Assembly: GCA_951406725.2 (NCBI GenBank)
Contig: OX597814.1
Location: forward strand, 17,856,001-17,920,000
Source: Octopus vulgaris
Lineage: Eukaryota
DNA: 64,000 nucleotides
Reading direction: 5' to 3'
The notes beneath the pieces are model-generated. The model was not told where the DNA came from and did not search any database. It was given only the letters and a program-made list of their open reading frames with translations. The position numbers were made by a program, and so were the translations under genes. Positions 1,381 through 63,506 of this stretch are shown piece after piece (position 1 is the first letter of the stretch; each line of letters starts with the position of its first letter).

Positions 1381-1682
1381 TCTTTTATTCTTTTATTATT
1401 TTACTTGTTTCAGTCTTTTGACTGCGAACGGCCATATTGGAGCATTGCCTTTAGTCGAACAAATCAACGTCAAGACTTATTCTTTGTAAGCTTAGTACTT
1501 ATTCTATCGGTATCTTTTGCCGAATTGCTAAGTTATGGGGACGTAAACATACCAATATCGGTTGTGAAGCGATGGTGAGAGGACAAAACACAGACACACA
1601 AATACATACATACATACATACATACATACATACATACATACATACATACATACATACATACATACATACATACATACATACA
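1381..1682 (-). mobile_element. SINE family B 3' half ending in a (TACA)n tract
   Basis: ttttacttgtttcagtc...ctattctatcggt-like...gacgtaaaca segment shared with full-length copies. Confidence 0.8.
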
Positions 1683-3105
1683 AAAAGGTCTCAGAACGTG
1701 TTTCCTTTTTATATTTCTACTGCATAATAAACAACGAAGAGAATGGGGTAAGATTTCAAATAGGAATGACAATGGACGTAAATAATGTCGTTCTCGCTGC
1801 TTCTTTCGCGCTAAAAGACAAAACATCACATGGTATAACGTCATCTTGTATTCTATCTTAATCAACTTTACGAAATCTGCGTACCCAAATTACTGGATGG
1901 CATGTGAAAACATGGCAGAGAATTAACAACAAAACTCTAAATATAACTTCATGCTATAATATATATATATATATACATAGAGAGAGAAAAAGAAACAGTG
2001 GAGAAGGGCAGAATGGGAGCGATAGGAGGGAGAAGAGACTTAAAGGCAGTGAGAAACGAGATCAACGATATCACAGTTTTAGCAGAAAGGAGTGATGACA
2101 CCATCCAGGAATTTAAGGCAAAATCTTTTTCTCTATAGAATTCCTAAATACTGACTTGCCTGTTTCGAGAGACATTTTTGATAAATAAATGTTTCCACTA
2201 CATGTATAGAGTACATTTTTTCCAGTTTGTTTTAAAATATGATTATGCAACAATTATAAACACAAACATACATACATACATACATACATACATACACATA
2301 TGTGTCTGTATATATATATATATATATATAAATATAACATACAGAAGTGAAAAGATGAGAGATAGGCAGACAGGAAGTTGGATATTCTATGATGTGAAAA
2401 TATCTGAAGGCAATGTTAGATAGGACAAAAGAAATTACAAGTGGTAGCTGGGTGCAAGAAATTATAAAAGGAAAAGTTTAGAAAATCAACAAACTACAAA
2501 AGCAAAAATGACAAGAGAAATAGTGAGGGGAGAGAGGGGTGGATATGTTTGTCTGCGTGTGTATATATATATATTTCATGGAAGAGAGTCTGCCTAGTGT
2601 GTGTGTATGTGTGTGTGAGAGAGAGAGAGGGAGAAATAAAGAGAGAGAGAGAGAGAAAGAAAGAGTTAAACAGTGTACGGTCAGAGATGATGTTACTGAT
2701 GCATACATTGGCTGCGAAAAACCACAGGAGTTTGAGCGTCGGACAGAATGCCTTGCGGTATTTGTTTCCATTCACTGTGCACGGAGTTCAAATCCTACCG
2801 AAGTGACCTTTTCCTTCCATCCTTTAAGAGCCGTTAAAAGAAATATCCCTACCCAATACGCAATGGATTTGTGGAACTGCAAGAAAGACGGACCAGGTGT
2901 CATGGTAGTCTTTGATTTTGATCCTTTACGTTTCTGAGTTCAAAACGTAAACTGTATCTCGGTTTCACACCACTATCTGGTAACTTGGATATCGTAACAG
3001 AGACCAATTGGGCCAAACCTGTAGTCTGAGTAACATCCCTCACAATATCCCGTAAAGGCTACTGACAGCAGCTTTCTTTCTTAACAAATAAATAAAAGAA
3101 AATAA

Positions 3106-3482: not shown

Positions 3483-3638
3483 TAATTCTTTAATACGTCC
3501 CAAAATAAGGACGTTGAACGCTTTGTTATAAGGTACCTCAATGACACACTTCAGTTTCGTATAACTTGTTGATTCATCCTTTTTCGATTATTCTTGCTTT
3601 TTCGATTATTCCTTTTTCTTTTATGGCTATTGCAGTGA

Positions 3639-4022
3639 TGGAGGCGCAATGGCCCAGTGGTTAGGGCAGCGGACTCGCGGTCGTAGGATCGCGGTTTCGA
3701 TTCCCAGACCGGGCGTTGTGAGTGTTTATTGAGCGAAAACACCTAAAGTTCCACGAGGCTCCGGCAGGGGATGGTGGTGATCCCTGCTGTACTCTTTCAC
3801 CACAACTTTCTGTCACTCTTACTTCCTGTTTCTGTTGTACCTGTATTTCAAAGGGCCGGCCTTGTTACTCTCTGTGTCACGCTGAATATCCCCGAGAACT
3901 ACGTTAATGGTACACGTGTCTGTGGAGTGCTCAGCCACTTACACGTTAATTTCACGAGCAGGCTGTTCCGTTGATCGGATCAACCGAAACCCTCGTCGTC
4001 GTAACCGACGGAGTGCTTCCAC
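3639..4022 (+). mobile_element. Full-length tRNA-derived SINE family A with TSD
   Basis: Pol III A box TGGCCCAGTGG and B-box-like GGTTTCGATTCC; duplicated ATTGCAGTGAT at 3629-3639 and 4023-4033. Confidence 0.92.
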
Positions 4023-6469: not shown

Positions 6470-6504
<35 letters not shown>

Positions 6505-6505
<1 letters not shown>

Positions 6506-6730
6506 TTAATCAAAAATAAAAGCAAATATATAAACAAAATTAACAAATGTCAAAACGATGTATACAGTAAATGAATTCGGTTGACGCTCAGTTTAAGATA
6601 GAAAAAGAGGGGGTGTGACGTTTCGGGTATGGCTCTTCGTCAGAAAGATGGAAGAAGAAAGGTCCGGAGAGGAGGAAAAGAACAGTCCGAGAAAAGTACG
6701 TGTGAGGTTATATGACTGAAGTGACCAGAT
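6505..6730 (-). mobile_element. Small microsatellite-flanked element with a hammerhead-like core at 6612-6648
   Basis: Reverse complement reads tcttt CTGACGA A GAGCCATACCC GAAA C GTC acacc; related to the elements at 60655 and 61355; stems partly decayed. Confidence 0.55.
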
Positions 6731-6759
6731 AGAGTCAGACAGGCGGATGGACGGACAGA

Positions 6760-7242
<483 letters not shown>

Positions 7243-7432: not shown

Positions 7433-7822
7433 TGGATTGGAAGCACTCCGTCGGTTACGACGATGAGGGTTCCGGTTGAGCCGAATCAACGGAACAGCCT
7501 GCTCGTGAAATTAACATGTAAGTGGCTGAGCACTCCACAGACACGTGCACCCTAAACGTAGTTCTCGGGGATATTCAGCGTGACACAGAGAGTGACAAGG
7601 CCGGCCCCTTGAAATACAGGTACAACAGAAACAGGAAGTAAGAGTGAGAGAAAGTTGTGGTGAAAGAGTACAGCAGGGATCACCACCATCCCCTGCTGGA
7701 GCCTCGTGGAGCTTTTATGTGTTTTCGCTCAATAAACACTCACAACGCCCGGTCTGGGAATCGAAACCGCGATCCTATGACCGCGAGTCCGCGGCCCTAA
7801 CCACTGGGCCATTGCGTCTCCA
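7433..7822 (-). mobile_element. Full-length SINE family A with 13-bp TSD
   Basis: Reverse complement of the 3639 copy; CGTGGCGTAATAT at 7420-7432 and 7823-7835. Confidence 0.92.
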
Positions 7823-7925
7823 CGTGGCGTAATATAATGATAATAATAATAATAAAACATGTATGGATCATATGGTCTTACTACTATGTTTCATTACAAG
7901 ATTCACCTGTGAGGTAACATGGTAC

Positions 7926-13028: not shown

Positions 13029-13449
13029 ACTCTTTACTCTTTTACTCTTTTACTCGTTTCAGTCATTTGACTGTGGCCATGCTGGAGCACCGCCTTCTAG
13101 TCGAGCAAATCGACCCCGGGACTTATTCTTTTTGTAAGCCCAGTACTTATTCTATCGGTCTCTTTTGCCGAACCGCTAATTGACGGGGACGTAAACACAC
13201 CAACATCGGTTGTCAAGCAATGCTAGGGGGACAAACACAGGCACACAAACACACACACATATATATATATATATACGTATATACGACGGGCTTCTTTCAG
13301 TTTCCGTCTACCAAATCGACTCACAAGGCATTGGTCGGCCCGGGGCTATAGCAGGAGACATTTGCCCAAGATGCCACACAGTGGGACTGAACCCGGAACC
13401 ATGTGGTTGGTTAGCAAGCTACTTACCACACAGCCACTCCCGCGCCTAT
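13029..13449 (-). mobile_element. Full-length SINE family B (tRNA-like head, CORE-like segment, internal microsatellite, (GTAAAAGA)n tail)
   Basis: Minus strand begins ATAGGCGCGGGAGTGGCTGTGTGGTAAGT...GGTTCAGTCCC; more than 10 homologous copies in the window. The CORE-domain resemblance (CTTGGGCAA) is from recall. Confidence 0.92.
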
Positions 13450-14734: not shown

Positions 14735-15003
14735 TCATTACATCAACCCCAGTACTCAACTGGTATATATATATTATTAACTCCGAAAGGACAAAAGGCA
14801 AAGTCGAAACAGGAAGTAAGAGTGAGAGAAAGTTGGGGCGAAAGAGTACAACAGGGGTCGCCACCCTACCCTCCCTGCCGGAGCCTCGTGGAGCTTTGGG
14901 TGTTTTTGTTCAATAAACACACACAACGCCCGGTCTGGGAATCGAAACCTCGATCCTCCGACCGCGCGTCCGCAGCACTACCCACTAGGCCATTGCGCCT
15001 CCA
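14735..15003 (-). mobile_element. SINE family A 5' half (about 14807-15003) abutting a family C fragment
   Basis: Minus-strand head GGAGGCGCAATGGCCTAGTGG...GGTTTCGATTCCCAGACC, followed by a tcgactttgcctttt segment of family C. Confidence 0.75.
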
Positions 15004-16722
15004 CACCACCTCCAATAGTTGTTTGAAATTTAGGGAAAAGACTAGAAATTCTAAGAAGAGTAGGATTTGTCGATTACATCGACTCCCAGTTGGATGAAGA
15101 TTAAAGCTGACTTCGGTAAGATTTGAGCTCAGAACGTAAATTACTTGAAGAAATACCACAAGGAATTTTTCTCCTATGTTTTAACGATTCTACAAACTCA
15201 CCATCCTTGATGATGAGTTCTACCATAAGCGTATGTACACGTATTCAGTGGTGGGGGAAAAAATCAATTAAATCAACTTCAGTACTTGTCAAATATTTAT
15301 TTGATTCCCTTTGAAAAGACTTAAAGTAAAACGGATTCCTGTGGGATTTGAACTCAAAACATAAAGGGAACGTAACTGAATAACGTAGATGTTATACAGC
15401 GTTCGACCGATTCTGCCAGAATAGTAACAACGTTGTGTGCGTGCGTGTGTGTGTGCGTGAATTCCCAGCTGCGAGCTTGTCTCTTCCCATTTTTCCATTA
15501 TATATACATATATAAATATATGTCTGGCGCTTTATTGTCATGTCTGTTCCCGCAGAAACTCATGCGCTTCTTCGTGATTCGTCACACACACACACACACA
15601 CGTAGGCGCGCATGCGTAGGCGTGTCAGTATGTGGTTGTAGAGTGAGGATGTCAGAGTAAGTTAGATAATAAGACAAACACTTATACATGTATGCATACT
15701 TACACACATATCTAGATATCTATAGATCTTTTCGTACAATCTATGTAGCCATCATTCTTTGCACATATATCATTCACTGTACTTTTATAATTATCTATTC
15801 AAGACCATTTCGGTTGATAAATGGTCCACATGGCAGCTCTCCTTAATCAGACGTATGGCACGAAGGTAGCGAATCAAACATGTTACTGCAATTCACAGGT
15901 CCAGTACACCCGCATTTACAAAAGTAATAAATCTAGCGTTTCAGGTTTGACCATCGTTATAAACAACTATGACAATCTTATATTTATCAAGGACTTCATG
16001 TCCTGAAGATCTAGAATCTAGAACATTCTTGACGCCATTTTACTTCATTCTTCTCTTTACATTTTTATTATGCATATATCTAATCTGAGATAAAATTAAT
16101 GATTAGATTCAACACATAGGAAGATAATATACAATTTGCCAAGCCTACTAGGTTACATTTTACAATTTGCCAAGCCTATCATAGTTACATATAGTCGCCG
16201 TCCAATTCAATGTTCCCTTCAATTGTACAATGTCGTTGAACCATCTATGAGGAAGAAACAGTTCTGGCTTTGCCACGGGCTTAGAAGCTAATCGATAGCA
16301 CTAACAAAGTAACGCAAAAGCTCCTTCATGGTTGGAAGAAACTGCTACCACTCTATAAACTTCTGAGCACTACTATTTTTGGATAAGACCCAAACCAATA
16401 ATATTTTCAATCCGATGTATAAATTTATGAAATGTCATTAGAGCATACACTGAAAATATATCGTAAAGTCCCTGGCCCTACTTTATTTCTTTCTGCTGTC
16501 TAATATAGTATTTGTTGTATGGTATGATCATAAACAAGCTGCCATTTTCAGCGTACAGTCTAGCTGTTCACTTCAGTATAGCACATTGGCATTGCATTCT
16601 CTATGTTTCTGCTATTAAAATTTTACCCCTCTCCTTTCGATGTTCCTTTCGTACTTTTCTTATTTACTCTCCTACCCCATCTCCTTCTCCCCACGTGTGC
16701 ATACATAAATGCATACATAAAT

Positions 16723-18367: not shown

Positions 18368-18469
18368 TACAAATACTTGCACACATGCGTACATACACTC
18401 ACTCACACTGAGTCGGCTAATGTGTGTCAGGATCAGAAATTACTATTGTTATTTAGTTTATAGTCAAGG

Positions 18470-18672
18470 TGGGGAGCAGGACAAATCGTTAAGCAAGCCG
18501 GACAACATGCATTTTGTCTGTCTGCACGTTCTGTGTCCAATTTCCGGCAAAGTCACCTTTGCCTTTCACTCTTCCAGGGTCGATGTAATAAGTACCACCT
18601 GTGCACTGGGGTCGATGAAATCGACTTACTTCTTCCTCCGAACCTGCTCGATTCGTACCAAAATTTGAAACC
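18470..18672 (+). mobile_element. Diverged SINE family C
   Basis: cctttgcctttcactcttccagggtcgatgtaataagtacc...ctggggtcgatgaaatcgactt. Confidence 0.7.
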
Positions 18673-18734: not shown

Positions 18735-19528
18735 GTCTCCGTTACGAGGTCCTTAAATTTGTGTATTTTCTCCCGGTTTTCCTTTTCAAACATGGACAGA
18801 GGTTCACTGTTAAAACTAGTTTCACCTGTGCCTCTGAGAACCTAATTCCGGGTTGCGGTCATCAGTACATTGGACAAACGAGTTTAACTTTGAGAAAGAG
18901 AATCACTCTGCATAAAGAGCAAGTCCGTTTCCCGCAATACAGACAAATTCCTCTCGGTGAACACATAGAAAAATGTGCAGGTAACATCAAATCAAATTTC
19001 ACAGCCTTCCCTTTCTACCAGTGCAAAGACACAAACTCTCAACTAGAACGCTTAAATAAAGAAACCTTTTTCATTGAAAAATACAAAACGCGTCTTAATA
19101 TGCACGCATAATCAACTTTTATATTTTTACATATTACATCACTGTACATAAATCCCCTATTAAAAAAGGTCTTTTTTAAAAATAACTGTCTCTTTTCTGT
19201 ACACATATTTATTCCTCACCCATTTACCGAAACCTGAACAGTTATCTCCTTTACACACAACAATAACAATAATAACAACCAATTACCTCCTTTTATCTGT
19301 CTACTTGCGAAGTCATTCACTCGTGAATGTCATTACACACAACATGGACCGAATTTCTTCTTAAGAAAAAATATATATTCATATAAATTAAACGTTATAT
19401 CATGAATAGCGATAGCGAAACCGGTCGATATATTAAAAATTATATTAAACCCATGTAAGTGTGCGTATTTTCTTATATACATTACAAGTCACCACGTGGG
19501 GACAACCGAAATTCCTCTTTTCTGTTAC
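18735..19528 (+). mobile_element. Penelope-like retroelement 3' relic with GIY-YIG endonuclease remnant (ORF 18761-19111)
   Basis: FTCASENLI..GCGHQYIGQTSLTLRKRITLHK...EHIEKC...RLNKETFFIEKYKTRLN shows the YIGQT-R-R-H, E and LN hallmarks of PLE GIY-YIG domains; 3' region homologous to 51170-51545; ends at (TA)n. Confidence 0.85.
19396..19432 (+). ncRNA. Minimal type I hammerhead-like motif with variant core AUGAAUA (A3-U8)
   Basis: TATATC ATGAATA GC-GATA-GC GAAA CCGG TC GATATA: 6-bp stem I, 2-bp stem II with tetraloop, palindromic stem III ACCGGT, GUC triplet at 19424-19426. Confidence 0.65.
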
Positions 19529-20497: not shown

Positions 20498-20559
<62 letters not shown>

Positions 20560-20560
<1 letters not shown>

Positions 20561-20790
20561 TATGCAACCGTTAATCTAGTCACGTTTTTTTTATTTTTCT
20601 CTCTCCGTTTTTCTTTTCTTCTCTTCAGCTGTTTTCTCTCTTCATTCTTTTCTGAAGAGTGTATGCTTGAAACGTCAATGATTTCATTTTTCCTGGGCCG
20701 ACAAACTAATACACCTTGTTTGTATTAGTATTCCTCACCTGTTTCTGTCTTTTTTTAAATTTTTATTTTTGTACAATTTCGAACTAAATG
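20560..20790 (+). mobile_element. Small (TA)n-flanked element with a degenerate hammerhead-like motif at 20642-20681
   Basis: TCATT cttttctga A GAGT-GTAT-GCTT GAAA C GTC AATGA; downstream actaatac segment shared with the 50379 and 61355 elements. Confidence 0.55.
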
Positions 20791-23267: not shown

Positions 23268-23573
23268 TGTAGGTATATGTATATATATTCATGTGTGTGT
23301 TTATGTTGAGATTATTGGATACGATGACTACACCAAGGGTATCACAGTTCCTATCAAGAATTACAAGTAATTTGAAAACTAAGGATGTCGTCATCAATTC
23401 GAAACTGAACATATCCATTATCAAAAACTGAAAAAAAGCGCTTGGTTACAAGCACTATACTAATCTGAGCGTGTCGCGACCCATTTGTCATGTTTTTGAG
23501 CAAAATATACACTATCGTTACCAATTTTCTCTTCATATAAGGACTTTAACCCCAGAAGTTCGTAATATAAAGT

Positions 23574-23935
23574 GTGGAGGCGCAATGGCCAAGTGGTTAG
23601 AGCAGCGGACTCGCGGTCGTAGGATCGCGGTTTCTATTCCCAGACCGGGCATTGTGAGTGTTTATTGAGCGAAAACACCTAAAGGCTCCTCCTGCAGGAG
23701 GTGGTGGTGAACCCTGCTGTACTCTTTCACCACAACTTTCTCTGTTTCTGTTGTACCTGTATTTCAAAGGGCCAGCCTTGTCACACTCTGTGTCACGCTG
23801 GATCTCCTCGAGAACTACGTTAAGGGTACACGTGTCTGTGGAGTGCTCAGCCACTTGCACGTTAATTCCACGAGCGAGCTGTTCAGTTGATCGTATCAGC
23901 TGGGACCCTCATCGTCGTAACCGACGGAGTGCTCC
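23574..23935 (+). mobile_element. Full-length SINE family A with 11-bp TSD
   Basis: TAATATAAAGT at 23563-23573 and 23936-23946; homologous to the 3639 copy. Confidence 0.92.
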
Positions 23936-24452
23936 TAATATAAAGTAAAGTGAACTGTTATGTTGCTTCTGCCTTCATTTCTAGTTAGCACTGCTTTCTG
24001 AAACAATTTTAGCACACGTCATGTATGTATGTATGTATGTATGTGTGAATGCATGCATGTAAGGTGCACTTTTCTGTCATGAACGACAGATGCAACGTTT
24101 TGCAGAACAACCTGCTCAGATGGTTCTTTTTGTAGTGATTGAATTAGTGTGATGTACATTAGTTCCCTTTCTTCATCAAATAAACTTTATCTGTACAGGT
24201 GCGCGGTGTGCTACACATCGTATGTCGATTTGATCGCGGAACGTTGTGAAATGTCCTATTTTCCTTTACAAATAGAACGCAGTGCCCGGCTCGGGGAGTC
24301 GAAACCCCAATCTTGCAATCATGAATCCGACATCCCTAACCACAAAGCCACGCGCCTCCACACACACACACACACACAGACACACACACACACACACATA
24401 CACACACACATACACACACACACACACACACATTAATATATATCAGATTTTT

Positions 24453-24883
24453 AGGCGGTGAGCTGGCAAAAACGTCAGCACGCCGGGCGAAATGCGTAGC
24501 CGTATTTCGTCTGCCGTTACGTTCTGAGTTCAAACTCCACCGATGGTCGACTTTGCCTTTCATCCTTTCGGGGTCGATTAAATAAGTACCAGTTACGCAC
24601 TGGGGACGATGTAATCGACTTAATCCTTTTGTCTGTCCTTGTTTGTCTCCTCTATGTTTAGCCCCTTGTGGGCAGTAAAGAACTAACAATCATTATTGGC
24701 AGGCCGGGAAAAATTCTTAGCGGTTTTTCGTCCGTCTGCACGTTCTGAATTCAAATTCTACCGTGGTCGACTTTGCCTTTCCACCTTACAGGGTCGAAAA
24801 AGTAAGCACCAGTTGAGCATTGTGGTCAATGTAACCGACTTAGCCCCTACCCTGGAGTTGCTAGTCTTGTGCTAAAATTTGAA

Positions 24884-25703: not shown

Positions 25704-26125
25704 CTCTTTCTCTTTTCTCTTTTACTAGTTTCAGTCATTTGACTGTGGCCATGCTGGAGCACCGCCTTTAATCGAGCAGATCGACCCCGGGACTTATTCT
25801 TTTGTAAGCCCAGTACTTATTCTATCGGTCTCTTTTGCCGAACCGCTAAGTAACGGGGACATAAACACACCAGCATCGGTTGTCAAGCAATGCTAGGGGG
25901 ACAAACACAGACACACAAACACACACACACGCATATATATACATATATACATATATACGACGGGCTTCTTTTCAGTTTCCGACTAACAAATCCACTCACA
26001 AGGCTTTGGTCGGCCCGAGGCTATAGTAGAAGACACTTTACCCAAGGTGCCACGCAGTGGGACTGAACCCGGAACCATGTGGTCGGTAAGCAAGCAACTT
26101 ACCACACAGCCACTCCTGCGCCTAT
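25704..26125 (-). mobile_element. Full-length SINE family B
   Basis: Closely matches the 13029, 32254 and 58506 copies. Confidence 0.92.
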
Positions 26126-30152: not shown

Positions 30153-30608
<456 letters not shown>

Positions 30609-32253: not shown

Positions 32254-32657
32254 ACTCTTTTACTCTTTTACTTGTTTCAGTCATTTGACTGCGGCCATGC
32301 TGGAGCACCGCCTTTAATCGAGCAACTCGACCCCGGGACTTATTCTTTTGTAAGCCCAGTACTTATTTTATCGGTCTCTTTTACCGAACCGCTAAGTAAC
32401 GGGGACATAAACACACCAGCATCGGTTGTCAAGCAATGCTAGTGGGACAAATACAGACACACAAACACACACACGCACATATATATACATATATACGACG
32501 GGCTTCTTTCAGTTTCCGTCTACCAAATCTACTCACAAGGCATTGGTCGGCCCGAGGCAATAGTAGAGGACACTTGCCCAAGGTGCCACGCAGTGGGACT
32601 GAACCCGGAATCATGTGGTTGGTAAACAAGCTACTTACCACACAGCCACTCCTGAGC

Positions 32658-32660
<3 letters not shown>
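32254..32660 (-). mobile_element. Full-length SINE family B within (TA)n
   Basis: Matches the family throughout; (TA)n on both sides. Confidence 0.92.
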
Positions 32661-40287: not shown

Positions 40288-40871
40288 GTTCAGATATTGA
40301 TGATGACGTCGATCTGGATAGCAGTTTAGACAACACAGGCAACGTATCAGACAGAGATTTCAGCATGGATGGAGACAACAGTCGGGATAGTAAAGAAAAT
40401 GTCGGTCCGCCTTGCCTAGGTAATAACAGTATTATGAACAATACCTGCAACACTAACAGCAATTCGTCGATGGCGCCCAATTCCGTTTCGTCCAACATTG
40501 GCAGCCCAGACGATGTGAAAGACGATACAATTATTAACTTTTCAAACAGTGTTGATAGTCTTTCAAATTCGGGGACATTACCCATAAACAAAAATAACAA
40601 CAGCAATGCTAATGGGACCACGAACATTATTACTAATAACATCACGAACAAAAACAATAACACAGTCAAGGACAACAGCAAAGACTCTACGAACATTTCA
40701 GCAGATCACTCCGAAAGCAACATGGGTGCTAAACGACGGGGACCACGTACGACCATCAAAGCGAAACAATTAGAAACACTAAAAGCGGCTTTCGCTGCCA
40801 CCCCTAAGCCAACACGGCATATAAGGGAACAACTGGCACAAGAAACGGGGTTGAACATGCGTGTTATTCAG
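40288..40871 (+). CDS. Lhx1/5: Internal coding exon of a LIM-homeobox gene of the Lhx1/5 (Lim1) family: acidic/Asn-rich linker plus homeodomain residues 1-46
   Basis: Translation ends [49 protein letters not shown], the Lhx1/5 homeodomain as I recall it. Polypyrimidine tract and acceptor ...tctcgctag (AG 40286-40287, phase 1). Donor CAG|GTGAGG at 40872, the usual LIM-HD intron position just before VWFQN. 584 nt, no stops. Confidence 0.95.
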
Positions 40872-42885
40872 GTGAGGAACCTTTTTATATTAAACATGTA
40901 TTGGCAATATTTCTGTATTTTAGGTTCGACCAAGAAACAAAGTTTGCTTCTGTAAGTGTGAACAAAACATTGTCGAGTAAATCGACTCATTTGGTATATT
41001 ACAGGTATTTTTATATGATGTGTGTCATGAAAAGGAACAGAGTTTAGATTGTGATTAATTTTAAATCTCATGACGGGATAAAACTACAAGATTTGCCTAC
41101 ACCCATACCTCTACACCTGCCAGAATAAAGCTATGAGAATAAAGCCACGAGTAAATTTTAAGTTTGTTGGTGAATTGGTACAATTGTCAGTCCCTGGGAG
41201 AAAAATGGCTGGCGACATTTTGTTCCAGTTTTTACATTCTGAGTTCAAATCTAGTCAGAGTGAGCTTTGCATTTTGAGATAGATAAAACGAAGTACCAGC
41301 TACATGCTAAGGTCGGTGATGGTAGTGACTAATCCTCTTGCTTCAAAATTACTGGATTCCTGTAGTTCAGTAAAAAAACAAAAAAAAAACAACAGTAAAT
41401 AATTGTTCCAAATTTCGTTACAGTGCTAGTAATTTTGGAGGAGTGAGAGTCAATTACATCAGGTCTAATCCTTGACTGTTGCTTTATTTTATCAACCTCG
41501 ATGGGATGAAAGACAAAGTTGACCTCGGCGGGGTTTGAATTCATGAGTCGGAAGAAATGCCACTAGATAATGATCTTAACAATATCGTGCGACTTCAAAC
41601 TGAGCCACGGTTCACTTTACTTGCTTTTCATCGTCCATAGAGTACCAAACTCGTGCTGGAATAATTTCAGTTATATACAGTACTTACTACTTCTTCTTGG
41701 TCATTTTGGTTAAGTTAGAAAATCAGGAACCTTGCATTACTTTACGTACTGAGCTAAATTTTCTTTCTAGTATAAACTCTGAGCTGTATTCATCCAGGGT
41801 CGATAAGATAGGAAATACTGAATTACGCTTACTTGTTACATATTATATGTACACTAGGGATATTAGATGAAGAATATGTCTGATGTTAGAACTCAAAATT
41901 CAAATCATAGAGAGAGAAAGAAAACAAATATAAAAGTTATATATTTAAGTGTTCAATCAACTCTGCCAACTCACTAAGATTATAGACGTAAGTATTAAGT
42001 ATTTGTGGTGATATGTACAGAGTTTTTAAGAGCAAAATACACTATATTATATGCGGTATTCATGATGATACGTGCTTAACAAATATTACATCCTCAAACT
42101 CCTAAATACGGTCTTGTTTCAGTTCAAATCTACTAAGAGTCGATTAATATTTCATAATTTTGGAGCTTCCAAATGTTATGTGTCAATACAGTATCAATTT
42201 TGTGTCAAACATCCAATTCCAGAAGTTTTCGAAAAATAAGAGTTTCATGCTTTAACACACCCGCACAAATACATACATACATGGACTTCAGTACGTGTTA
42301 TTGTATATTATATATATATGTCTGAATATAAATGTGTACGCAAGCACACAAACACTCTCATACAAATATATATATATACAAAACATAATAAACATAAGTA
42401 CGTATAAAGACATGGCTACTTAAATTTTATGTACTTGCAGATAACTACGGAGCTATATGTATAAATGCCTAAATAATACACACAAAGTTTGATATATAAA
42501 CGGGCGTATATACACACCCATTTGTATTTATAAATGTATGCATGTATGTAGCTTCGGTGTGTTTCGGTTTGGCCAGTAGCATGTATTTGAGTAACACAAA
42601 GACAAACGTATCAAACACCATACAAAATTAATTCTTGATTTATTCAAATTATCCCGCATCAGTCGAGACTAACATCATATGAGAAGGGGAGAAAATCTCG
42701 AAAATAAGCATTTATCCAAAACTGACATGCCATTAAAAAAATAGGACGGGCTTATTGCCAGGGGGATAAGAGAATAAGTGGGGAGTTCTGTTTCTACCTT
42801 GATAGGCGTTCTCAAGTAAGTATGCTCGCGTTTGTGCGCGCACGCGTGAATATGTGTATGTGTAAATCTATGTGTGTGTACACTC

Positions 42886-46534: not shown

Positions 46535-47515
46535 GGCGGTGAACTGGCCTTAATCGTTACCACGTTTGGAGAGATGCTTTGCGGTATTGAGTTCAAATTC
46601 CGCCGAGGTTGACCATGCCTTTCAACTTTTCGGGGTCGATCAATTAAGTACCAGTCACACACTGGAGTCGATGTAATGGACTAGTTTCCCCGCTCAAAAA
46701 AAAAATAAATAAAATAAATAAATAAATAAATAAGGCCTTGTGCTTCGTGTAGAAAGGTTTATTATTATCATTTGTAGTTGACTAAAATCCCAAACGAAGA
46801 TTAAGAGTCATTATCATTTTTCCTTCTAAAATACATCTCGCTGAAATATTGCTTTCAAACTTTAACACAAGGCCAGCAATTTCAGTGAATCTGGTAAGTC
46901 TATGAAAGGCCAAGTTGTCTTCGGCAGAAACATCTCTGAAACAATGATTTAAAATTTTGGTAACAGGCCAGCAATTTTTCGGGGGAAGAAAAAGTCAACT
47001 ACCTTGACTCCATTGCTCTTCCTTTACTTATTTTATTGACCCTTGGAAGATGAAAGGCAACGTCGACCCCAGCGTCATTTGAACTCAGAGCGTAAAGTCG
47101 GAATAAACGCTCTAAACATTTTGTCCAACGCAGTAATGATTCTGCCAGCTCGCTACCATATTTCCCTGAAATATTAATGTATATTATTAAGACTATTTTG
47201 TCTGTCGTTTCCTTTCAACCACCAACATATAAGGAGATGGAACACTATACAAAAACACCACGTTGTCCCGCCCAATTATAAATCAATGCAAACTCTATGG
47301 ATTCCTTAAACACTTTGATGGATATATAATTTTATACTAATATTATTATGCATTGACTAGTGTTGCTTTCATTTCTATCAATCATCAGTTTATTATTACT
47401 ATGAATACTATTCTTTATAATATAAAGAACATATTTTCTTATATTTATTTTATTTGTGCATCCAAACTAAATTCCCTCCATAGCACCACAATCCTCATCT
47501 TATACACGTACACAC

Positions 47516-49372: not shown

Positions 49373-50245
49373 TTCAAACTTTCATACTTGTAAAATCACG
49401 TATGCCTTTATTACGAATGCGTATATTCGAACAAAGCACTGTGTGTATATGTGTGAGTGTGTTGTGCGCGCGTGTGTGGTGTGAGCATGTAAGTATATGA
49501 TTTGTAAAATTATGAATGGGGTGTGAGGTGATGTTTATATATGATTTTGTTTACGAAAAAATGTGTACTCAATACATGATTTAGAGTTCATATTTAGTTC
49601 GATACAACTGATGATGCACATTGCACCCGAGTGCAGTTTTTCGTGTAATTCGTGTAATTAATACACGTACACTTACATACGCACATTTACACACACGCAC
49701 ACAAACACACACAAACATGTGTACATATATACACTCACACAAATACATTTGTAGGGGCAAAAGAAAGAAAGTGTACTCAATAACATGTTATGTACTAAAT
49801 TATTTATTACGTAAATTTAGTTGTACTCATGGTTTGGGGACGCCATTATGAAGAGAAGATTTTTCTGGGCGTATTCAACGGAAGCTTTATCTCCAGGATA
49901 AATCTTTTTGCAGCTTTCCGCAAAGAAGAAAAGGTACTCAATGCTGGTTGTCTCATCTAGATCTAGACCTATACATTGTAATGAACGTCATATATCTGTG
50001 TATCTATGGAAATGCATGAATTCAATAGATTCATACGTATATTTACACACACAAACATACACATGTTCTAGAAACTACAATACATATGATGGGATTATCG
50101 TACGTAAACTTGAAAACACACTGAAACAATTGATTATGGATCTGGCATGCATTCTAAAAAATTGCGTGTATGTAGAAAGTTTATATGTGTGTGTTTTGTG
50201 GTGCGCACACCCATATATATATATATATATAAATATATGTTCCCT

Positions 50246-50299
<54 letters not shown>

Positions 50300-50337
50300 G
50301 TATATATACATACATACATACCATACGTACAGAAAGG

Positions 50338-50378
<41 letters not shown>

Positions 50379-50381
<3 letters not shown>

Positions 50382-50510
50382 CCTTTCTATGGAAGAGCCT
50401 AGGCCCGAAACGTTAAAGACTTTTTCAATTCCCGAGCGTTAAACTAATACATCTGTTTGTTGTCTACACCACCTCCCTTCGTCTTTTACTTTTATGTAAC
50501 TTCTCCCTAT
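50379..50510 (+). mobile_element. Small (TA)n-flanked element with a degenerate hammerhead-like motif at 50383-50418
   Basis: CTTT CTATGGA A GAGC-CTAG-GCCC GAAA C GTT AAAG; core mutated. Confidence 0.55.
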
Positions 50511-50581
50511 ATATATATATATGGGTGTGCGCGCCACACACACACACACACATAAACTTTCTACATACACGTAATTGTGTG

Positions 50582-51545
<964 letters not shown>

Positions 51546-51827
51546 CATATATATATGTATATATGTATACATATATATATATATGTATACATATATATAT
51601 ATATATGTGTAGCTTTTGGTAGATCAACTTAATTGAATATAATTTAATTTAATTAGGCTGGTTTGCCATTAAAAACATCGAAACAATGCATTGTCTAAAG
51701 ATGAATAGGGTAAATGTTTTTTTAAATTTTCCTTTAATTTCTGAATTACTACTACTTGGCGCTTTGAGTCCTGGCTGCTCTTTCTAGTGGGTCGAATGGC
51801 CTATTTGAGGCCGTTCCTCAATTGTTG

Positions 51828-57880: not shown

Positions 57881-57967
57881 GATTCAACACTAGAGACAAC
57901 ACACCACCAAAAGTTCTCTTAAACTGCATACACAATACAATCGGCAAATATATATATAACATTATTA

Positions 57968-58498
57968 AGGCGGCGAGCTGGCAGAAACGTTAGCGCGCCG
58001 GGCGAAATGCTTAGCGGTATTTCGTCTGCCGCTACGTTCTGAGTTCAAATTCCGCCGAGGTCGACTTTGCCTTTCATCCTTTCGGGGTCGATAAATTAAG
58101 TACCAGTTACGCAGTTGTCCCCTTGTGGGTAATAAAGAAATAGGTATTTCGTCTGTCGTTGCGTTGTGAGTTCAAATTCCGCCGAGGTCGACTTTGCCTT
58201 TCATCCTTTCGGGGTCGATGAATAAAGTACCAGTTTCGCACTGGGGTCGAGGTAATCGACTTAATACCTATGTCTGTCCTTGTTTGTCCCCTCTGTGTTT
58301 AGCCCCTTGTGGGTAATAAAGAAATAGGTATTTCGTCTGTCGTTCAAATTCCGCCGAGGTCGACTTTGCCTTTCATCCTTTCGGGATTGATAAATTAAGT
58401 ACCAGTTACGCACTGCGGTCGATGTAATCGACTTAATCCCTTTGTCTGTCCTTGTCTGTCCCCTCTATGTTTAGCCCCTTGTGGGCAATAAAGAAATA
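57968..58498 (+). mobile_element. Head-to-tail trimer of SINE family C
   Basis: One head (AGGCGGCGAGCTGGCAGAAAC); units 2 and 3 restart at GGTATTTCGTCTG (58143, 58327), each after an AATAAAGAAATA tail. Confidence 0.92.
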
Positions 58499-58505
58499 TA
58501 TATTA

Positions 58506-58733
58506 TATTCTTTTATTCTCTTTTACTTGTTTCAGTCATTTGACTGCGGCCATGCTGGAGCACCGCCTTTAGTCGAGCAAATCGACCCCGGGACTTATTC
58601 TTTGTAAGCCCAGTACTTATTCTATCGGTCTCTTTTGCTGAGTCGCTAAGTGACGGGGACGTAAACACACCCGCATCGGTTGTCAAGCAATGCTAGGGAG
58701 ACAAACACAGACACACAAACACATACACACACA

Positions 58734-58815
<82 letters not shown>

Positions 58816-58981
58816 TACGACAGGCTTCTTTCAGTTTCCATCTACCAAATCCACTCACAAAGCATTGGTCGGCCCGGGGCTACAGCAGAAGACACTTACC
58901 CAAGATGCCACGCAGTGGGACTGAACCCGGAACCATGTGGTTGGTTAGCAAGCTACTTACCACACAGCCACTCCTGCGCCT
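58506..58981 (-). mobile_element. Full-length SINE family B, tail-to-tail with the family C trimer
   Basis: Matches the family throughout. Confidence 0.92.
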
Positions 58982-60586: not shown

Positions 60587-60654
<68 letters not shown>

Positions 60655-60655
<1 letters not shown>

Positions 60656-60875
60656 TAGGATATATGGGTATTATATGTGACCTCGTCTGTACCACTAGCG
60701 ATTTTTCCCCTTGTCTTCCCTTCTCGGGATCTTTCCTTCTCCTATGTTTCCGACGAAGAGCTCCGCTCGAAACGTCAAACCCTCCTTCTTCTCTTCTTTC
60801 CTGAGCGTCCAATAATACTTTATTTGTTCCACGTCCTTACGTTGTTGTGTTTTTTTTGTTTTCTTGTTCGGGTTA

Positions 60876-60880
<5 letters not shown>
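60655..60880 (+). mobile_element. Small microsatellite-flanked element with a hammerhead-like motif at 60746-60780
   Basis: GTTT CCGACGA A GAGC-TCC-GCTC GAAA C GTC AAAC. Confidence 0.7.
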
Positions 60881-60910
<30 letters not shown>

Positions 60911-61285
60911 GCACACACGCACAGATATATGTGCTAAGCTCTATGTATATTTTGTCAGGTATTCATTCATATATCACAGTCTACATTTATTCTCCGATTC
61001 ATTTAAATACTTAATTCATACTGCTGCACCCCGTCTCTAGATTTCTTTCTTCCCTTCTGTGCAGAGGTATATGCATAGTTAACACATTACAACACATACA
61101 GATAATCAGACAAGTTAGTAAAAAGTGGAAAAACAGGTAACAAGCAACACTAGGTTGGTTCCTTCCTCTTAGCTTACATTTTCTTGTTTTAATATATGCT
61201 TTCATATGAATTTAAAAAGTCGAGGTATGATACGTATAGCTTGAAGCTAATTTTCTTCCTATGCCACGATCCCTGGATCTAAACA

Positions 61286-61354
<69 letters not shown>

Positions 61355-61356
<2 letters not shown>

Positions 61357-61557
61357 CGGAAAGCTTTATGAAAATAAACAAAAGACGAAGGCAGGTGGAG
61401 TACAAACAAACAATTGTATTAGTATGGCGCTCAGGAATAGAAATAAAACAAGTCTTTTACGTTTCGAGCCTACGCTCTTCAACAGAAAGATACACAGAAA
61501 AGAAACACGGAGAGAAACAAGGAGAGAAAAAAATGCGTGCAGAAGTTAGCGATTCAA
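61355..61557 (-). mobile_element. Small microsatellite-flanked element with a hammerhead-like motif at 61453-61490
   Basis: Reverse complement: TCTTT CTGTTGA A GAGC-GTAG-GCTC GAAA C GTA AAAGA. Confidence 0.65.
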
Positions 61558-61565
61558 TACATACA

Positions 61566-61599
<34 letters not shown>

Positions 61600-61936
61600 C
61601 ATACATACATACATACATACATACATACATACATACATACATACATACATACATACATCCATACATACATACATACACACACACATACATACATACATAC
61701 ATACATACATACATACATACATACATACATACATACATACATACATACATAAGAAGGGGAATATTCCTTGTGTTGCATGTCTTGTACTCTGTTTTTTCGT
61801 TTTTTGAAAAAAAGTTCGTTTCCTTGTTTTTGTTTTTGTGTTTTCGTTTCTCATTGTGTTCAACGTTTTTTTGATGTCCTGTACCCATATAGATCTAGGT
61901 ATGTACATATAATTTATGTATATATGCATATATTTA

Positions 61937-62633: not shown

Positions 62634-63079
62634 CTGTCAATGCCATTCCTCAATGAAAATCCACTTAATTCTAGCTTTGTCAAATAGTTGAACGCATGAA
62701 GAGCCAATACTAAATCATATCGATGAAAACACACACACACACTCACACACACACATGCGCGTGTGTGTGCCAGATAAAATACAATTCAAATTGGTCTGAA
62801 TCGGTAAAACTTGGAATATTTTGAAAAAAGCGAAAGAACGAGCGCTGTGAAACTGGTGTGCGAAATAGAGAATCTAACGTTTCGGAAAGAGTTCTTCATT
62901 TTAACGATGACAGCAAAGAAATAAAAGGAAAATAAAGTTTCACACCATGAAAAGGACTCTGTCCGAAACATTGGATAATCCACTCTCCACAAAATATCCC
63001 TGCATATGTTGTGTGTGTGTGCGTGTGTGTGTAGCTAATCAAATATATTTTTGAGACAGAATATCTATATTTATGCTCA

Positions 63080-63215
63080 ACAACATGGTTCCGGGTTCAT
63101 TCCTACTGCGTGGCACCTTGGGCAAGTGTCTTCTACTATGGCCTCGGGCCGACCAAAACCTTGTGAGTGAATTTTGTGAACGGAAACTGAAAGAAGTCCG
63201 TCGTATATATATATA

Positions 63216-63246
<31 letters not shown>

Positions 63247-63506
63247 AAATATGTATATATATATATATGTATGTATGTATGTATGTGTGTGTATATGTTT
63301 GTGTCTGTGTTTGTCCCTCCAACATCGCTTGACAACCGATGGTGGTGTGTTTACGTCCCCGTGACGTAGCGATTCGGCAAAAAAGATTGATAGAATAAGT
63401 AATAGGCTTACAAAGAATTAAGTCCTGGGGTCGATTTGCTCGACTAAAAGGCGGTGCTCTAGCATGGTCGCAGTCAAATGACTGAAACGAGTAAAAGTGT
63501 AAAAGG
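63080..63506 (+). mobile_element. SINE family B in sense orientation, lacking the first part of the head
   Basis: Begins at acatggttccgggttca, missing GTGGCTGTGTGGTAAGT; ends gagtaaaagtgtaaaag. Confidence 0.9.

Follow-up and report, generated by a model that had tools for sequence, protein, structure and literature searches.

Five decayed hammerhead-bearing elements in an Octopus vulgaris contig, probably end pieces of Penelope-like elements

Five short elements carrying hammerhead motifs were found in a 64,000-nucleotide stretch of the Octopus vulgaris genome (contig OX597814.1, positions 17,856,001 to 17,920,000; here called the window). With a probability of about 0.7, they are decayed solo pseudo-LTRs (pLTRs) or heavily 5'-truncated 3'-terminal pieces from at least two subfamilies of EN+ Penelope-like elements (PLEs), most likely of the Neptune type, each with the minimal type I hammerhead of PLEs. 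Elements of this kind have already been published, and the extra A in their ribozymes is a trait of the PLE minimal hammerhead, so that it is a family hallmark and not an oddity. The PLE reading was adopted because two endonuclease-bearing PLE ends with hammerhead-like motifs (PLE1 and PLE2) lie in the window, because the ribozyme of a further locus, L012, stands behind a PLE endonuclease frame, and because the five elements have a polar structure ending in (TA)n. An earlier sequence-only reading of this DNA had suggested mobilization by Penelope-type enzymes, and that link is supported by these observations and by the match to the published PLE minimal hammerhead.

Table 1. Coordinates of the five copies, their ribozymes and associated features in the window
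Feature	Position	Strand	Description
Copy a, subfamily A	6504..6761	-	Core start 6643; 3' end at (TA)n
Copy b, subfamily B	20558..20786	+	Core start 20647; damaged 9-nt core
Copy c, subfamily B	50380..50507	+	Core start 50387; damaged core
Copy d, subfamily A	60655..60879	+	Pyrimidine-rich leader, minimal hammerhead, 3' tail of ~104 nt
Copy d hammerhead, best preserved of the five	60746..60780	+	Core start 60750
(TA)n at 3' junction of copy d, presumed target	60880..60909		
Copy e, subfamily B	61355..61557	-	5' flank (ATGT)n, 3' flank (TA)n
Copy e hammerhead	61453..61490	-	Core start 61485; stem I 5 bp, stem II 4 bp
(TA)n at 3' junction of copy e, presumed target	61289..61354		
Possible sixth copy, heavily decayed, uncertain	62868-62910	-	Stems not intact; pyrimidine-rich leader; 18 bits, E 0.011
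PLE1, 5'-truncated PLE end	18776..19528	+	GIY-YIG frame (stop 19109-19111) and 3' UTR; ends at (TA)n
PLE1 hammerhead-like motif	19396..19432	+	Stem I 6 bp, core ATGAATA (A3-U8 pair), stem II 2 bp, C17
PLE2, family of PLE1	50724..51546	+	Decayed linker, GIY-YIG frame and 3' UTR; (TA)n at both ends
PLE2 hammerhead-like motif, decayed	51445..51476	+	Core ATGATTA (A3-U8), stem I 3 bp, stem II damaged

The five elements were confirmed at the positions and on the strands at which they had first been noticed, and the size of ~200 bp given for them agrees with measured lengths of 128-258 bp. As had been noted, all five share an extra A between positions 9 and 10.1, the GAAA box and an ACGT palindrome. 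The quoted stem II loops (TCC, GTAG, CTAG and GTAT) and cores (CTGACGA, CCGACGA, CTGTTGA and CTATGGA) are correct. Position 17 is a non-G (UH) in every copy. The first core box (CUGANGA) is canonical in one copy, carries one change in two and two or more changes in the other two. The columns of the alignment that lack variation are those of the core, GAAA and ACGT block. The G10.1-C11.1 pair is G-C in four copies and G-U in copy b. Helix I has 4-5 bp in four copies (in one of them only with a shifted register) and is broken in copy a. No copy combines a perfect core with intact stems; both stems are intact in copies d and e, each of which has a changed core. The extra nucleotide after A9 had been set beside a viroid hammerhead and read as part of a new family; the nucleotide itself was seen throughout, but the framing was dropped, since it is a published trait of PLE minimal hammerheads (PMC4209133).

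The hammerhead of copy d consists of a 4-bp stem I, a core with U4C (CCGACGA), the extra A, a 4-bp stem II with a 3-nt loop, and then GAAA, ACGT and C17. Position 17 is C60776, and the cut is predicted after 60776. Copy e has U at core position 6, a GTAG loop on stem II and A17. Copy a, first described as the most decayed element, deserves that description for its stems (two of five pairs in stem I, two of four in stem II) but not for its core, which is the only canonical one; the most damaged core is that of copy b, which also has two G-U pairs in stem II. Copy c is cut off 8 nt upstream of the core. In subfamily B, A at core position 6 is absent from all three cores (the register of copy b being uncertain), and these cores are mutually unlike (CTGTTGA, CTATGGA and the 9-nt form). 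A second conserved block (CYGAGCG-like, then AATAC) was observed 20-30 nt past position 17 in all copies of both subfamilies, for example at 60802-60808. In copy d this block is able to base-pair with either the leader or stem II. One fold of copy d showed the CYGAGCG motif extending helix I distally, but the extension was inconsistent in other folds.

Pairwise matches split the copies into two groups, 6643/60750 (A) and 20647/50387/61485 (B), and the single family first proposed was accordingly replaced by two subfamilies. The 3' tails have 52-69 of 90 positions in common between copies (58-77% identity), and there is no sign of a young burst. Four of the five copies end in (TA)n at 94-114 nt past position 17; the fifth, copy b, ends at ~110 nt in a degenerate (ATGT)/(GT) run that is not a perfect (TA)n. 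Leader length ranges from 8 to 118 nt (72-118 nt in four copies), giving a fixed 3' end and a variable 5' end. As a baseline, when non-repeat positions are drawn at random, 15% have (TA)5 within 120 nt on a given side, and the chance that at least four of five copies end at (TA)n, at any distance up to 120 nt, is ~0.002; a scripted P of 4e-5 for the same ends used a 70-120-nt range chosen after the fact. On the 5' side, simple repeats lie within 120 nt of all five copies. The preference for simple repeats that had been proposed is supported. Copy b has (TA)n at its 5' side, copy c has (TA)n on both sides, and copy d has (TA)n/(GT)n on one side and (TA)n on the other. Target-site duplications are unreadable inside microsatellites.

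Copies d and e are convergent but separate insertions. A single inverted PLE unit made of both was considered and rejected: they belong to different subfamilies, and 470 bp of other sequence lie between their (TA)n runs. Copy c is bracketed by a 69-bp inverted duplication (93% identity; 50160-50227 and 50508-50576); near 50331-50341 there is another short stretch that matches the start of copy c in inverted orientation. The duplication could have arisen during insertion or from a fold-back in the assembly.

Both a nucleotide profile and a covariance model were derived from the copies; run over the whole window, they recovered these five and the weak candidate at 62868-62910(-). A hammerhead descriptor was written after the motifs had been seen, and 60 local (block-wise) dinucleotide shuffles of the window served as background. 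The strict form gave three matches against a shuffle mean of 0.017, and the relaxed form five against 0.23. The strict matches were 60750, 61485 and a motif at 19402, so that two of the five copies pass the strict form. The relaxed form added 50387, bringing the copies to three, and 45762, probably a chance match. Copies 6643 and 20647 pass neither form. In Rfam, no hammerhead family reached the gathering score in the whole window or E<=10 in 60600-61600; the matches obtained were microsatellite-driven miRNA and similar families only.

The stems had been described as covarying. This was not sustained: in an alignment of six sequences (the five copies and L012), which placed copy 20647 outside the register of the sequence-only reading, the observed values were reached by 52-185 of 500 shuffles. 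By hand, in that register, stem I has two compensatory changes and stem II none, and the TCATT/AATGA pairing of stem I requires a 9-nt core instead of a 7-nt one. Covariation is thus not significant in these six sequences. Local folding stability did not exceed that of shuffles (z from -1.8 to 1.7). Copy d and L012, as monomers, have as their lowest-energy structure an inactive rod in which the core is paired with the ACGU region; the rod lies below the open form by 5.0 kcal/mol in copy d and by 2.4 kcal/mol in copy e. Chance open frames spanning copies e and d were used in protein searches for further copies and for the state of core position 6; these returned nothing and are not evidence either way.

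None of the five copies has coding sequence attached, and no parent frame for them was found in the window. PLE1 and PLE2, the two endonuclease-bearing ends, are not of the same family as the five. Both share 66-69% identity with P0001, a protein with RT, GIY-YIG and a C-x4-C-x2-C linker as in Neptune/Nematis elements, and they are ~70% identical to each other in the coding part. Motif and context would place them as Neptune-like. Their hammerhead-like motifs stand 263-291 nt after the stop codon, and the (TA)n terminus follows about 74-103 nt after the motif. The palindrome of helix III is ACCGGT in PLE1, with ACCAGT as its counterpart in PLE2, and stem I of PLE2 has one compensatory change relative to PLE1. 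The A3-U8 core of these motifs is the best lead from this window, with two copies, one of them decayed, and a 2-bp stem II. Natural U3-A8 cores are in print (PMC4209133, PMC3088659); a natural A3-U8 core was not found in the hammerhead literature searched, which did not include Lunse et al. The tails of the five copies showed no similarity to those of PLE1 and PLE2 (z from -1.6 to 1.0). We rejected an element with PLE2 for its body and copy c for its upstream pLTR, the ribozymes and tails of the two being unrelated. A copy of a SINE-like repeat lies directly 5' of PLE1 (18467-18669).

The remaining locus, L012, came from a scan of prokaryotic genome contigs with an 18-base stem II/helix III pattern. 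The scan gave 27 loci, close to the ~35 expected by chance, and L012 was the only one with a PLE tblastn match; the other 26, with no PLE match and no similarity beyond the pattern, were set aside. In its hammerhead, L012 shares the CCGACGA core with copy d; position 17 is C, and the 3-bp stem I shows two compensatory changes. Neither core, C17 nor stem I was fixed by the scan pattern. The motif follows, at a distance of 99 nt, a frame that has a C-x4-C-x2-C linker and GIY-YIG (Pfam 23.6 bits, cut-off 22.6). Likeness to the five copies is confined to the ribozyme. The sequence-only reading had called for a check of linkage to PLE RT or GIY-YIG frames: none of the five copies is so linked; in L012 a ribozyme of their type is. 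The contig is filed as a bacterial MAG, and at 1480-2610 (-) it contains a decayed PLE end as well as an (ATAC)n run. L012 is probably animal DNA inside a binned genome.

The observed anatomy suggests, by analogy with other PLEs, how the copies may have arisen. The GIY-YIG endonuclease would nick (TA)n DNA, a step modeled on PMC8557442, which discusses how Neptune and Naiad elements favor microsatellites, and on PLE1 and PLE2. The reverse transcriptase would then start at a fixed site on uncleaved RNA, ~90-115 nt 3' of the cut site, and so produce fixed 3' ends (after PMC11167929). In the Anolis PLE, the only one to have been reconstituted in vitro, the reverse transcriptase begins at an internal site of the RNA, 111-118 nt into the frame, and the hammerhead cut site is at +26 (PMC11167929); by our own subtraction the start is 85-92 nt past the cut site. 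A comparable start here, near the observed 94-114 nt, would explain whole, uncut ribozymes in the genome. Synthesis would end 8-120 nt upstream of the core, either through truncation or on reaching the transcript's 5' end, and leave a non-coding insert of 130-260 bp. The copies have drifted since insertion.

The ribozyme of the Anolis PLE cuts only with the protein present (PMC11167929). As published for other PLEs, the parent ribozyme would cut after position 17 only as an ACGU-paired dimer or with the help of the PLE protein. The hammerheads at the present loci are probably inactive: activity is unlikely because helix III needs a partner, because copies on the same strand are 10-55 kb apart, and because the copy d monomer prefers the rod. 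U4C and changes at A6 are reported to lower hammerhead activity but not always to abolish it (PMC3088659). The motif at 60750 would be the best candidate for residual activity.

In place of pieces of ordinary PLEs, the copies could belong to a pLTR-derived non-autonomous family, a unit of ~200-230 bp with fixed ends that is transcribed alone and copied in trans by PLE protein, its fold perhaps serving in subfamily B as a non-catalytic recognition signal. We rate this as rather unlikely. Copies b and e do have almost identical starting points (p about 0.04) and the copies are of similar length; the shared start is compatible with non-autonomy. The leaders of 72-118 nt in four copies fit a defined unit as well as they fit random truncation, and none of the five reaches coding sequence, as against both members of the PLE1/PLE2 family. 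The loss of A6 throughout subfamily B (copy b register uncertain), the finding that cleavage is dispensable for insertion of the Anolis PLE in vitro (PMC11167929) and the report of non-autonomous PLE derivatives (PMC8557442) point the same way. However, three subfamily B copies are too few, and their cores differ from one another as expected of drift. Copy c is truncated just above the core, the divergence of the tails speaks against a young burst, and a parent with a long UTR like that of PLE1 and PLE2 (about 260-290 nt) would yield short non-coding copies by truncation alone. A narrower proposal is that subfamily B only is such a unit, with fixed ends and a fold kept while the catalytic core (A6) was lost, the ribozyme having become a recognition signal for the PLE RT and internal initiation having raised its number to ~five per 64 kb, while PLE1 and PLE2 carry a natural A3-U8 core; this we hold to be unlikely. 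The separate non-autonomous family of the sequence-only reading is not needed to account for the five, which 5'-truncated or solo pLTR pieces of ordinary PLEs explain.

Retrozymes had also been mentioned. On a retrozyme reading the copies would be monomeric remnants of non-LTR retrozymes, which multiply via small circular RNAs that canonical type I hammerheads cleave. The lengths of the copies overlap with the 150-450 bp range of retrozyme monomers (PMC7229834), and retrozymes, for which an origin from pLTRs has been argued, are also found as monomers (bioRxiv 10.64898/2026.07.22.740005). But no tandem arrays of the elements were found within the 64-kb window, the ends are not at the cleavage site, and the ribozyme is the minimal PLE form, with neither a capped helix III nor a 6-bp helix I and with no Rfam hammerhead match. 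This origin is therefore highly improbable. An ordinary short interspersed repeat that resembles a hammerhead by chance is scarcely credible. It would accord with the lack of significance in covariation and folding stability, with the two copies that fail the descriptor and with the 26 prokaryotic loci that have the 18-base pattern and no nearby PLE frame. It is opposed by descriptor matches far above those of shuffles, by the invariant columns, and by the presence of the same motif behind the PLE endonuclease of L012 as well as in Neptune elements already published. A tRNA-type SINE was rejected: simple patterns for internal Pol III A and B boxes, applied to the sense strand, matched in none of the five copies. 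A Naiad origin is unsupported as well; in term searches of the PMC8557442 supplement the 3' end of Naiad_Obim was unlike the five.

The window is AT-rich and crowded with microsatellites, with 12.7% of it in perfect runs. It contains a LIM-class homeobox exon at 40728-40877 (+), after an Asn/Ser-rich linker, with Lhx4 as the best PDB match; we take the exon to be Lhx1/5-like. An abundant repeat family of ~ten copies (70-96% identity) has two ~165-bp arms split by an internal microsatellite (13060-13446, 25724-26123, 30155-30599, 32273-32658, 58516-58979, 63078-63488 and others). A SINE-like family of ~170 bp occurs at 168-343, 24436-24883, 57950-58503, 46588-46682 and elsewhere, locally in tandem at 58170-58498, and a ~385-bp family (85-95% identity) at 3634-4021, 7438-7823, 14806-15006 and 23571-23939.

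PLE minimal hammerheads occur in thousands of copies across many animal genomes. The value of the present motifs for annotation lies in that Rfam misses them and that they mark non-coding PLE ends that may go unclassified in repeat catalogues. Should 5-7 motifs per 64 kb prove typical of the whole genome, there would be enough copies to test selection for cleavage against selection for the fold in PLE hammerheads, and also to test an origin of solo pLTRs by internal initiation at the transcript 5' end. The literature searched contained no paper on cephalopod hammerheads, nor any description of these families in connection with Octopus, Penelope and microsatellites; Repbase, Dfam or Lunse et al. 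may list them. The O. vulgaris repeat paper (PMC13282606) reports many Penelope families, with no mention of ribozymes or hammerheads in the portions covered here.

Among known systems, non-LTR retrozymes resemble the five copies in being non-coding, ~200 bp long, PLE-related and equipped with a type I hammerhead, but they are defined by tandem arrays and circular RNAs (PMC7229834; bioRxiv 10.64898/2026.07.22.740005), and this window holds no tandem array. The Naiad PLEs of Octopus share the preference for insertion into (TA)n; unlike the five, they are without canonical hammerheads according to the retrieved entries of the PMC8557442 supplement, and their 3' end differs as described. Poseidon of Anolis carolinensis (PMC11167929) is alike in its fixed 3' end ~90 nt past the cut site, its AT-rich target and the uncleaved ribozyme in its inserts. 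It differs in belonging to another clade, in a frame that begins inside stem II and in an AC-rich start site, as against the U-rich tails found here. The Neptune/Nematis EN+ PLEs (PMC8557442) share 5' truncation, microsatellite bias and a hammerhead near the 3' end. Their linker, C-x2-5-C-x2-C before a C-terminal GIY-YIG, is present in P0001 and L012 and decayed in PLE2; with no RT attached to the five, their clade assignment rests on this linker motif in their neighbors.

The closest counterpart is the PLE minimal hammerhead of Cervera and de la Pena (PMC4209133). The traits listed there for PLE pseudo-LTRs are a nucleotide between 9 and 10.1, G10.1-C11.1, a palindromic 15.2-16.2 and a short helix I. 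Most such hammerheads are described as single motifs, probably from truncated PLEs, and as highly variable. The 56 motifs listed include no cephalopod, molluscs being represented by Lottia and Crassostrea. Where they differ, the cores of the present copies deviate (U4C; non-A at 6), and the five have no parent frame. Otherwise the two agree in type I topology, a helix I of 3-5 bp, the extra base after A9, G10.1-C11.1, a 4-bp helix II, a helix III reduced to ACGU and a U-rich leader. They further share GAAA, H17, mostly single dispersed motifs with high variability, and some pairs that lie 100-700 bp apart on opposite strands. The Acropora Neptune motif of the same paper (Fig. S3/Table S1), in which the GAAA position was restored by hand, has the same plan as copy d.
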